Shown here: in pieces, positions 34,538 through 36,753 of the stretch
Numbering within the stretch: position 1 is the first letter of the stretch
Layout: the number at the start of each line of letters is the position of its first letter
Origin: a virus
Lineage: Duplodnaviria > Heunggongvirae > Uroviricota > Caudoviricetes
Reading direction: 5' to 3' (one strand)
DNA length: 55,530 nt
IMG/VR virus record: IMGVR_UViG_2602041669_000011
Notes under the pieces: model-generated
Seen by the model: the letters and a program-made list of their open reading frames with translations, nothing else
Told to the model about the DNA's origin: nothing
Databases searched by the model: none
Translations under genes and position numbers: made by a program

Positions 34538-34545
34538 TGAAACCT

Positions 34546-34580
34546 CGTAGAATCTGGCGTGTTACCCGATTCTACGAGTA
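34546..34580 (-). promoter_or_regulatory. Perfect 11-bp inverted repeat (ctcgtagaatc / gattctacgag, 13-bp spacer) abutting the RBS of the gene at 34537
   Basis: Seen directly; the 3' arm overlaps the GAGG Shine-Dalgarno of the leftward gene. Confidence 0.35.
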
Positions 34581-34690
34581 GTCATTTGTCCATTGAGTGG
34601 GAATATTGCCGTCCGGGAGTAATATGGTATCATTAAGTTAGAGTAGGTAGTGTAGATGGAATGAGGAGTATCATATGGTTATCACACAAT

Positions 34691-34765
34691 CAGGTTGCTT
34701 TGAGTCAGGTTGCTTTGAGTCAGGTTGCTTTGAGTCAGGTTGCTTTGAGTCAGGTTGTTTTGAGT
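34691..34765. repeat. Five tandem 15-bp direct repeats (CAGGTTGCTTTGAGT x4, fifth with one mismatch)
   Basis: Seen directly in the sequence. Confidence 0.9.
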
Positions 34766-34776
34766 AAAACAATAAA

Positions 34777-34802
34777 ACGCCCTTTAATGGGCGTATTTTT
34801 TT
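34777..34802 (+). terminator. Rho-independent terminator-like hairpin immediately upstream of the island ORF
   Basis: acgccc-tttaat-gggcgt hairpin followed by ATTTTTTT; an A-run precedes it, so possibly bidirectional. Confidence 0.45.
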
Positions 34803-34812
34803 AGGGTTTAAA

Positions 34813-35706
34813 ATGCATTCTTTACAGAAATACATAAAACATAAATATACTCACTTAACTTTTTTTCTCTCATTACTTTTTTTCATGATATTTGAATCTC
34901 GAGAAGATATTATCAAGAAAACATTATCTTTTTCTCTCGATGAAGTTTTACCATTCTTAATGTTTGCGTTCTTCTCCGCCTTTATCAGCATAACGATAAA
35001 GGAAAAGATAGCAAAAAAATACCCAGAAACAAACGATGGGATTACCATTATAGCTTTAATCTTTGGTGTAACGCTATATAGTGTATTTATATTATATTAT
35101 TTATATGGTGATGTATACCAATCCACAATTGCTTTACTTATAAGTTCTGTGCTACTTGGTTCTGGGTGGTGGGTTCAGGCTACTGTGAGTAAAGTAGCCG
35201 CAAGAAAATCACACACCTTAAATACACTAATGAATCAAAGAAACAGTGAATTATTTCACAAAAAAGTCTCATCGGTAGCGAATACGTTCGGGCTTAGAAA
35301 AACCATAAATGAAATTATTGCCAAACAAAGACTTATCCCAAATGATAAAGATTTAAAAAATAAAAAGGTCCATGATAAATACATATCAGCAGGTAATGAT
35401 ATGTTCTTCGTTCTTAATTATTATGAGTTTATCTGTTCAGGAATAATAAATGGAGACTTTGATGAAGATTCAATGAGAGAATGTCTTGGACAAATTGTTC
35501 CAGGTCTCGAAGTTAGAGCATTTCATTTTATAAGAATTGCAAGAGAAATTTCAGGGAGTAGCTGCTTCTGTAATTTTGTTGCTGTTTCAGATAAATGGTC
35601 TACTAATGGAGGCTCTCTTATTCTCAGACACGAGAAAGGAGAACCTGTGATCAATAACCTGACCCATTGCTTTGAAGAAACAGACTGTTATAACACAACA
35701 TCTTAA
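34813..35706 (+). CDS. AT-rich cargo: polytopic membrane protein with C-terminal soluble domain (297 aa)
   Basis: Long ORF in markedly AT-rich DNA; about four N-terminal hydrophobic helices then a roughly 170-aa hydrophilic domain; no motif recognised. Confidence 0.6.
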   Translation: MHSLQKYIKHKYTHLTFFLSLLFFMIFESREDIIKKTLSFSLDEVLPFLMFAFFSAFISITIKEKIAKKYPETNDGITIIALIFGVTLYSVFILYYLYGDVYQSTIALLISSVLLGSGWWVQATVSKVAARKSHTLNTLMNQRNSELFHKKVSSVANTFGLRKTINEIIAKQRLIPNDKDLKNKKVHDKYISAGNDMFFVLNYYEFICSGIINGDFDEDSMRECLGQIVPGLEVRAFHFIRIAREISGSSCFCNFVAVSDKWSTNGGSLILRHEKGEPVINNLTHCFEETDCYNTTS

Positions 35707-35748
35707 TATTTTGTAACCCATAATCGCTTTATGGGTTACGTTAAATTT
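35705..35748. terminator. Bidirectional terminator between convergent island genes
   Basis: gtaaccca / tgggttac 8-bp stem with T/A runs on both sides. Confidence 0.5.
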
Positions 35749-35757
35749 GCAATAAAA

Positions 35758-36234
35758 TTAATCGCCGCGCTTTAAGCATCCATCGTTTTTAGCTTGTTGA
35801 TATAATTTACTTAGCCCAGAAAGAGGAAATGTGGCAATTTTTTCATTATCAACATAAGCATCGATCGCATTAGCATTTGAATCTGCTGCATCTTGCCAAA
35901 AGGCATACCACCAAGAATCTCCAACCATTGACCCAAGATTGCTAAAAGGGTATTGCTCACCATCTAATGTTAATACTATTTTACTCTTGTCAGCATTATA
36001 CTCTTTTTTATTATTCGACGACCTTAGCAACAGGCCTAAACTACCGGCACTATCTGGTGATCCATACATGAAACCCATATCACATAAAAAACTTATCTTA
36101 TCACCATTTTGATTATGGATTGTATATTCTCTCCCCCCTCTATCTTCAATTACATTCCATTGTAGAGGATCAATTTTTGCAAATACTCCTGCTGAAATTA
36201 ACGATACAAATAATAAAAACCATCTCATATTCAT
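35758..36234 (-). CDS. AT-rich cargo: secreted/periplasmic protein with signal peptide (158 aa)
   Basis: N-terminal MNMRWFLLFVSLISAGVFA signal-peptide-like sequence; second gene of a two-gene leftward operon. Confidence 0.6.
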   Translation of the reverse strand: MNMRWFLLFVSLISAGVFAKIDPLQWNVIEDRGGREYTIHNQNGDKISFLCDMGFMYGSPDSAGSLGLLLRSSNNKKEYNADKSKIVLTLDGEQYPFSNLGSMVGDSWWYAFWQDAADSNANAIDAYVDNEKIATFPLSGLSKLYQQAKNDGCLKRGD

Positions 36235-36256
36235 TTTTTTCGCTTCTTATCTGTAA

Positions 36257-36607
36257 TTATTCTGCAATATCATTTGCCCATTGCACGGCAGCAAAATGAG
36301 TGCCCAAGCCACTCAGGAAAGCAATTATTCCCAAAACAATACTAGCTGCTGTTGATTCAAACAAAGCACCAATGCTATAGCCAATAGCTCCCCATACTAA
36401 GCTAAAGACAATCATCAATGGTATTGCCAGAAATTTTATTCTTAAACTAAAAATCAGTCCAAGAAATGAACCGCCAAAGGCCCACCATGATTTAGACATT
36501 AAACCTATCAGTATTGACAGAATTCCTATTTCAATAAAGAGAATATTAGATTGCTCTTCATTGAATTTCGCATTTGTTACACCTTTACGAACATGTTCAG
36601 ATGACAT
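36257..36607 (-). CDS. AT-rich cargo: small polytopic membrane protein (116 aa)
   Basis: Three to four predicted transmembrane helices (ILFIEIGILSILIGL, AFGGSFLGLIFSL, AIPLMIVFSLVWGAIGYSIGALF, IVLGIIAFLSGLG). Confidence 0.6.
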   Translation of the reverse strand: MSSEHVRKGVTNAKFNEEQSNILFIEIGILSILIGLMSKSWWAFGGSFLGLIFSLRIKFLAIPLMIVFSLVWGAIGYSIGALFESTAASIVLGIIAFLSGLGTHFAAVQWANDIAE

Positions 36608-36753
36608 GATTAACTATCTCCAGCCACAGATAAAACGCCTTAAAATAACATTTTGTAGCACAAAGTTTCACCATGCAATGGTCAAAGTCTTTGATCCATA
36701 TCAATTAGAGTTATACATTTTAGTTGCATAGCTAATAATTTATACGGACACAA

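Follow-up and report, generated by a model that had tools for sequence, protein, structure and literature searches.

Which genes occupy, in other P1-like phage-plasmids, the position at which P1 carries its superinfection-exclusion locus sim, and what do they do there? The question is raised by an AT-rich island of three genes, here called A, B and C, in a stretch of 55,530 nucleotides from a virus of the Caudoviricetes (IMG/VR record IMGVR_UViG_2602041669_000011; this whole stretch is referred to as the window). An earlier note on this DNA had read the island as a horizontally acquired cassette of membrane and secreted proteins and had suggested that its three genes form an exclusion, abortive-infection or toxin/immunity system. 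Our answer is that of a slot allele with two cargo modules, gene A and the operon C-B, both of which would protect the lysogen against other phages. The structural part of this account, an allele of the slot built from two modules, is very likely to be correct; for the combined account, function included, we estimate a probability of about 0.45.

An allele of the sim slot

The island stands out from its surroundings by its composition. Its GC (guanine plus cytosine) fraction is 0.338 as a whole, compared to 0.478 for the window, and counted over 300 nucleotides (nt) at a time it amounts to 0.28-0.38 at 34650-36900 and to 0.45-0.52 on either flank. The segment is thus far more AT-rich than the phage backbone, as described earlier. 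The use of this composition as a sign of an acquired cassette holds in part: the AT-richness is real, but it is not particular to the cassette, as the sim region of P1 is equally low (0.336). The other alleles of the slot are AT-rich too. Low GC is a trait of the sim slot, P1 included, and nothing particular to this cassette.

The setting of the island is that of P1. The genes on its left flank correspond to P1 sit, pmgB, tub and pmgC of the tail/injection operon, those on its right flank, on the side of the C1-controlled immI region, to icd, ant and kilA. According to the P1 annotation, the interval from pmgC to the C1 operator Oc4 and c4 consists of simC, simB and simA on the minus strand, and the location at the sim position, which the earlier note had proposed, is thereby confirmed. 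The cassette takes the place of sim, between pmgC and the C1 operator/c4 RNA, because homology to P1 ends at 34794 on the left, and the C1 operator and the C4 RNA follow on the right. The left boundary (34777..34794, identified in a terminator scan) is a GC-rich, bidirectional hairpin (T-runs on either strand). It belongs to the backbone and is 100% common to P1 just downstream of simC: positions 34750-34794 of the window correspond to P1 46706-46750, and the simC stop codon is located at P1 46786. The right boundary (36754..36770, plus strand) is a C1 repressor operator, the equivalent of Oc4, with the sequence ATTGCTCTAATTATTTT and 2 mismatches to the consensus; it is conserved across all slot alleles.

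The island is not rare. It is 100% identical to plasmid p95JB1A of E. coli 95JB1, a P1-like phage-plasmid, and about two dozen further E. coli plasmids of 87-120 kb, mostly non-mobilizable, are 99.7-99.8% identical to the region. Parts of the cassette are found in 83 of 5426 complete E. coli genomes and the full cassette in 34, with 84 of the 85 places located on plasmids. At 99.7-100% identity, A, B and C occur together in 25 PLSDB plasmids and in the 34 complete E. coli genomes. The variability of the slot and its low GC are already published, with simC-simB-simA listed among the eight regions of P1-like phage-plasmids that are hypervariable and low in GC (Wang et al. 2022, PMC9603915), and the cassette itself has been deposited many times as 'hypothetical'.

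The three open reading frames (ORFs) had been called exactly, with respect to coordinates, strands and lengths: A (34813..35706, plus strand, 297 amino acids, aa), B (35758..36234, minus strand, 158 aa) and C (36257..36607, minus strand, 116 aa). Compared to natural variants, A has a ratio of non-synonymous to synonymous substitution rates (dN/dS) of 0.10-0.19, B one of 0.21-0.24 and C one of 0.06-0.08; the comparison of C with one locus (L017) is unreliable due to frameshifts in the L017 assembly, and that of A with another (L032) was left out because its coordinates were out of frame. Since dN/dS lies between 0.06 and 0.24 and diverged homologues (24-72% identity) keep their motifs, A, B and C are judged from sequence to be real genes, all under purifying selection, and the earlier reading of the ORFs as truly coding is upheld.

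Two independent modules

The organization of the slot was compared across 45 loci (P1, plasmids, phages and IMG/VR contigs), with all candidate proteins mapped onto them. Every allele occupies the interval from icd/c4 to pmgC, with transcription running towards pmgC. The first allele, simA-simB-simC, is that of P1. The second and commonest consists of the gene for a long SimA protein (SimA-long, 172-215 aa) and a gene for a B-like protein. The third is composed of C, B and a gene for an SH3-domain protein; the fourth, found in the window, consists of C-B together with A, which takes the position of the SH3 gene on the opposite strand. The fifth groups genes for a SimA-like, a B-like and an SH3 protein with a truncated remnant of B and with A, and the sixth combines SimA-long, a B-like gene, a remnant of B and A. 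In none of the 45 loci is simB or simC found alongside a B-family gene.

Counted as tblastn matches in PLSDB, the B family is present in 176 plasmids (57 at no less than 80% identity, 119 at less than 60%), P1 SimC in 141 and C in 53, while A is found in 30 P1-like plasmids and, at 30% identity, in 3 small Klebsiella plasmids. It is the YfjT/YkfB-family genes, of which B is one, and not simBC that occupy the slot most often, and about half of the P1-like plasmids carry one. The second allele is also found in diverged P1-like elements and in Cronobacter phage JK004 (pmgC ~75% identical, B-like protein 53-63%), and so the B family has long been resident in the slot. The persistence of the pair of SimA-long and B-like genes indicates long retention under selection.

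The operon C-B is present in about 53 PLSDB plasmids, only 25 of which also carry A; where A is missing, the gene for the SH3-domain protein occupies its place. Conversely, A is also found beside alleles of SimA-long and a B-like gene that have no C. Because each occurs without the other across the PLSDB plasmids and the 45 loci, A and C-B are separable, and the island consists of two independent modules: gene A on the one hand, and C coupled with the window-type B on the other. The single three-gene system of the earlier note is thereby contradicted.

Wherever A lies beside an allele other than C-B, it is followed by a remnant of the window-type B, either a 3' fragment or a copy without a start (locus L011, 4676-4846; L012, 4678-5124; L032, 5001-5177). 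These remnants look like scars of recombination, by which A would have passed from one slot allele to another along with the end of B. A third type of protein that recurs in the slot is the SH3-domain protein. It comprises 344-357 aa, has a hydrophobic segment in its centre and carries a bacterial SH3 domain (SH3_3, E 3e-6) at its C-terminus, and its gene is found exactly at the position of gene A (L016, 3425-4459; L012, 5145-6218; L024-L030). Neither this nor the other alternative slot proteins, nor SimB and SimC, have a match in PADLOC.

We note that the SimA protein of P1 (52 aa; locus L001, 4413-4571) is identical to the N-terminus of SimA-long over its first ~45 residues, then diverges and stops. 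SimA-long is a secreted protein of most other P1-like elements (for example L011, 5490-6137, and L012, 6800-7318), with a Pfam match to PTPlike_phytase just under the threshold (26.7 versus 27 bits). Because of the shared N-terminus, simA of P1 looks like a 5' remnant that was left after simB-simC replaced the rest of an older operon of SimA-long and a YfjT-like gene.

The three genes, their families and the flanking elements

According to the earlier note, none of the three proteins belongs to a recognised family. This is true of C, whereas A (DUF4760, PF15956) and B (YfjT/YkfB, PF27224) are both catalogued, though uncharacterised. Its description of all three products as envelope proteins agrees with the hydrophobic helices predicted for A and C and the signal peptide predicted for B. 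C is predicted to be a small four-helix inner-membrane protein, B a soluble periplasmic protein containing a disulfide, and A a protein anchored in the inner membrane with a cytoplasmic helical domain. None of the three has a match among the 5027 models of PADLOC-DB 2.0 at E values up to 1.

Gene A encodes an inner-membrane protein of the DUF4760 family. The match to Pfam PF15956 (52.5 bits with a gathering cutoff of 25, E 7.7e-14) aligns residues 120-262 with model positions 13-141 of 141; RefSeq labels the gene DUF4760 likewise, and the protein also matches phrog_21275. Hydrophobic helices are located at residues ~11-28, 44-62, 76-94 and 104-125 and are followed by a helical C-terminal domain. 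From the positive-inside rule we infer that the N-terminus and the C-terminal domain are both cytoplasmic. The AlphaFold2 (AF2) model is all helical, with a predicted local distance difference test score (pLDDT) of 80.8. A has 23 homologues with the invariant motifs GWWVQ...R..HT.N..M.QRNS..F and NYYEFI...D, and the conserved polar residues are predicted to lie just inside the membrane. Compared to the 141-position DUF4760 model, A and 22 close relatives have three extra N-terminal transmembrane (TM) helices. Searches of A against PADLOC, NCBIfam and PDB sequences returned nothing usable, and a literature search found no functional study of DUF4760/PF15956.

The homologues of A are typically solitary genes. 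An Erwinia homologue (47% identity) is located after the primase of a P4-like satellite and before integrase remnants, and hence occupies the primase-att site, a minor defence hotspot that holds 7% of P4 systems (PMC13586616). Its assignment to the P4 hotspot of Rousset 2022 was rejected, as that hotspot is psu-int and the gene is not there. Pseudomonas homologues are found past the lysis cassette at the ends of prophages, some of them beside an integrase gene; one further homologue adjoins the integrase of an island, and that of phage phi467 is located between xerC and intA. In the table given by Rousset 2022 for the P2 gpA-gpQ hotspot, a DUF4760 gene is listed 197 times, beside StbA-type partition genes. 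None of the homologues in integrated elements that were examined in context has a C-like or B-like neighbour. A is a stand-alone accessory gene, and its homologues are solitary cargo at the edges of prophages, satellites and islands; other DUF4760 proteins resemble it in this respect, as they are found repeatedly on small plasmids, at the ends of prophages, and in the primase-att region of P4 and the gpA-gpQ hotspot of P2. The Erwinia rhapontici satellite (locus L007; 1-1631, 10330-11468) also harbors, on the far side of delta, a pair of Ser/Thr kinase and TPR genes that may belong to the cargo of the psu-int hotspot. Past the primase end of the same satellite, a gene for a bacterial RNase A-like toxin and a small downstream ORF are found among integrase fragments.

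Gene C, the first gene of the C-B operon, encodes the smallest of the three proteins, with 4 hydrophobic helices, and is located 22 nt upstream of B. It matches phrog_15014, but has no Pfam, PDB or PADLOC match; Pfam gave DUF981 below the threshold only, and NCBIfam nothing usable. The family is compact (16 matches at 54-72% identity), with an invariant N-terminal motif VRKGxTNAxFNE, placed in the cytoplasm, and the four helices. Outside P1-like elements, homologues of C are found alone among chromosomal genes, after an integrase gene, or after a gene for a DUF4431 protein. An example of the latter is a metagenomic contig (L004, 439-1608), in which the C homologue (66% identity) starts 12 nt after the gene for a secreted DUF4431 protein; the order is the reverse of that of C-B, and the partner is unrelated.

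Gene B, the second gene of the operon, encodes a protein that is predicted to be secreted and beta-rich. It begins with a signal-type segment that ends in VFA/K, and contains 2 cysteines; the AF2 model has a pLDDT of 85.7 and a predicted template modelling score (pTM) of 0.78. Several lines of evidence, all drawn from sequence comparison, assign B to the YfjT/YkfB family of E. coli K-12 cryptic prophages. The link to Pfam PF27224 rests on a precomputed label recorded on a cluster representative 93% identical to B, and a Pfam search with B itself, in a copy without the PF27224 model, gave no match. A variant at 94% identity is named 'YfjT/YkfB family phage-associated protein' by the NCBI Prokaryotic Genome Annotation Pipeline (PGAP), and an alignment of the B family profile with K-12 YfjT (hhalign) covers 143 columns with a probability of 99.7% and an E value of 3.7e-26. 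Members of the B family are secreted proteins of ~150 aa in which a Trp that follows the signal peptide, a pair of Cys and the motif GD..W..FW are conserved. An exhaustive HMMER scan with B over 1.84 billion representatives returned only 22 matches. Weak phmmer matches to a META-domain repeat protein and to the repetitive proteins P0048 and P0057 were dismissed, on reading the sequences, as artefacts of composition or repeats. Nothing usable came from searches of PADLOC, NCBIfam and PDB sequences with B, and a literature search for PF27224, for yfjT/ykfB and for the WP accessions of the three proteins found no functional study.

The K-12 proteins YfjT and YkfB (prophages CP4-57 and CP4-6) share with B a similar length, the signal peptide, the conserved W, the C...C pair and a GD..W..F motif. 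However, YfjT is only ~22% identical to B and is encoded in an integrative element, not in a P1-like slot. In CP4-57, yfjT follows ypjK, which encodes a 78-aa membrane protein, and yfjS, which encodes a lipoprotein. The arrangement resembles that of C-B, but differs from it in the lipoprotein gene between the membrane-protein gene and yfjT, and YpjK has no evident similarity to C when the two sequences are read side by side, without alignment. A more distant relative is found in Enterobacter sp. UNJFSC 003 (locus L019, 1834-5432), where a YfjT/YkfB-like gene, with 34% identity to B, comes after a gene for a different 116-aa membrane protein. It adjoins genes of a type VI secretion system (T6SS), namely a fragment with a ClpV N-domain, Hcp and an OmpA-like protein; genes for a LuxR-type response regulator and a giant Ig-repeat adhesin are located downstream.

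The non-coding elements of the island frame the two modules. A hairpin with a 12-bp stem (35712..35740, from the terminator scan) is located between the convergent genes A and B and probably terminates both. Together with the hairpin of the left boundary it bears out the earlier statement that the island has terminators of its own; 8 terminator-like sites were found where 1.7 are expected. The AT-rich leader of C-B and its presumed promoter region (36608..36753, minus strand) are divergent from the c4 promoters. As judged from its position relative to the P1 annotation and from an alignment of slot types, we infer that this leader corresponds to the PsimA/PsimB region of P1; a consensus promoter scan found no minus-strand site in it, the sole match there being on the plus strand.

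The consensus of the C1 operator, ATTGCTCTAATAAATTT, has 5 matches in all, versus 0.31 expected by chance. The four matches other than that at the island boundary are located at 8002, 11852, 38492 and 53944 of the window, with 1-3 mismatches, and probably mark other C1-controlled promoters of the phage-plasmid. Further to the right, the plus strand encodes an isrK-like RNA (36840-36918; Rfam 58.5 bits, gathering score 50), of the type of the Hfq-binding small RNA isrK, and directly downstream of it the C4 antisense RNA of immI (36962-37049; Rfam 76.7 bits). The immI leader sequence of P1 and pLH10 differs from that of the window at the isrK-like RNA, and in four aligned loci the type of the immI leader tracked the type of the first slot gene (C versus SimA).

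To the left of A, a 15-bp tandem repeat, TCAGGTTGCTTTGAG, is found at 34690-34765 (5.1 copies, 98% matches), between the promoter region of pmgC and the hairpin upstream of A. Its copy number is variable, the repeat being 45 bp shorter in most related plasmids. It is part of the backbone, since phage vB_EcoM-673R5, which has no gene A, has the repeat too. An ORF of 47 aa (34661-34804) spans the repeats (VALSQ x4) and the hairpin, with its stop codon 8 nt before the ATG of A, and a plus-strand promoter-like site with an extended -10 is located at 34606-34633.

Possible functions of the two modules

The locus that the cassette replaces provides the first guide to its function. P1 sim is cited as a superinfection-exclusion locus, and SimC as a processed secreted protein, in PMC9177967 and PMC2409434; a signal peptide is visible in the SimC sequence. 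The island and simA-simB-simC share the slot (pmgC to Oc4/c4) and the GC fraction (0.338 and 0.336), and both are non-essential hypervariable cargo. C-B and P1 sim are further alike in their orientation towards pmgC, in a divergent start proximal to the C1 operator, and in that the products of both are exported or membrane proteins. They differ in the first gene, which encodes a 4-TM protein in C-B and a signal-peptide protein in sim. No similarity of A, B or C to SimA, SimB or SimC was found, in line with the earlier claim that the genes are other than sim: B compared with SimB and SimC gave BLASTP E values of at least 1.2 and, for the B-family profile in hhalign, a probability below 1%. When the B model was compared with BFVD by Foldseek, no Sim protein was among the matches, the presence of SimB and SimC in BFVD being unconfirmed. 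What points to the exclusion, abortive-infection or toxin/immunity function of the earlier note is thus position and context, with no match to Sim or PADLOC, and the specific claim was not borne out.

An analogy is offered by single-gene membrane exclusion or abortive-infection proteins. T4 Imm and Sp, P22 SieA, HK97 gp15 and lambda RexB are small inner-membrane or periplasmic proteins encoded by prophages or phages at accessory positions, which block DNA entry or trigger membrane-level abortive infection. The likeness of the island to them is one of architecture and genomic role only.

On the account that we prefer, both modules would be expressed from the prophage and would shield the lysogen, and with it the phage-plasmid, from other phages. 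C-B would act like Sim, in the periplasm or the inner membrane, by disturbing DNA delivery by an incoming phage; B might bind an ejection protein that is exposed to the periplasm, for example the Sit transglycosylase, the gene for which lies in the neighbouring operon. Gene A alone would provide a membrane-anchored factor for exclusion or abortive infection. For either module, the anti-phage function is suggested by position and context, and we propose it tentatively, at somewhat less than even odds. A broader version is unlikely: the YfjT/YkfB family would then be widespread periplasmic superinfection-exclusion factors that block the ejection machinery (a Sit-type transglycosylase or the tape-measure protein) with allele-specific targets, and DUF4760 an independent single-gene, membrane-anchored anti-phage defence. 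Such allele-specific targets would explain the diversification of the B family in the sim slot of P1.

Of the explanations that compete with lysogen protection, the one that survives best is that B and C, and possibly A, are lysogenic-conversion or host-fitness cargo that alters the envelope (stress tolerance, adhesion or colonisation) and is unrelated to phages. Lambda Bor and Lom are examples of such envelope-altering genes. This is a minority possibility, of clearly lower probability than an anti-phage role: the matches in structure are weak, the term 'adhesin' comes from an unverified database label, the sole characterised occupant of the slot, sim, is an exclusion locus, and genes of the A family are found in cargo positions of phages and satellites that are enriched for defence genes. 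It is rather improbable that B is instead a periplasmic immunity-type protein against a T6SS effector or a bacteriocin, such that C-B would guard against bacterial competitors and not phages. The Enterobacter gene described above fits this explanation, as it follows the gene for another 116-aa membrane protein directly beside T6SS hcp, the clpV fragment and the OmpA-like gene. So does the predicted character of B itself, since many periplasmic immunity proteins are small, secreted and disulfide-bonded.

Less probable still is a single horizontally acquired system of three components, of the toxin/immunity or abortive-infection type. The genes are adjacent, are equally low in GC and travel together in the 25 plasmids and 34 genomes given above, but about half of the C-B carriers have the SH3-domain gene in place of A, A is present in SimA-long alleles without C, the homologues of A examined outside P1-like elements have neither C nor B as a neighbour, and A and B are convergent with a terminator between them. 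That the ORFs are chance frames in AT-rich filler, or the sim genes of P1 themselves, is suggested by low GC and nothing else, and is refuted by the dN/dS values, by homologues that keep the motifs at 24-72% identity, by the confident AF2 models of A and B and by the lack of similarity to SimA, SimB and SimC.

New in this analysis are the decomposition of the island into two modules, the finding that YfjT/YkfB genes occupy the slot most often, the connection of B with two y-genes of K-12 and the consistent cargo context of DUF4760. None of the YfjT/YkfB, DUF4760 and C families is found in the defence databases searched. P1-like phage-plasmids often serve as vehicles for resistance genes in E. 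coli, and P1 is unrepresentative of its group at the sim locus, because about half of the sequenced P1-like phage-plasmids carry a YfjT/YkfB-family gene there. If the cassettes do not serve exclusion or defence, the annotation of a widespread slot is still corrected and its modular build still shown. If they do, they would set which P1-like elements and other phages enter a lysogen, would provide a first function for yfjT, ykfB and DUF4760, and, as small systems at the level of the envelope, would broaden a defence catalogue in which cytoplasmic sensors of nucleic acids prevail.

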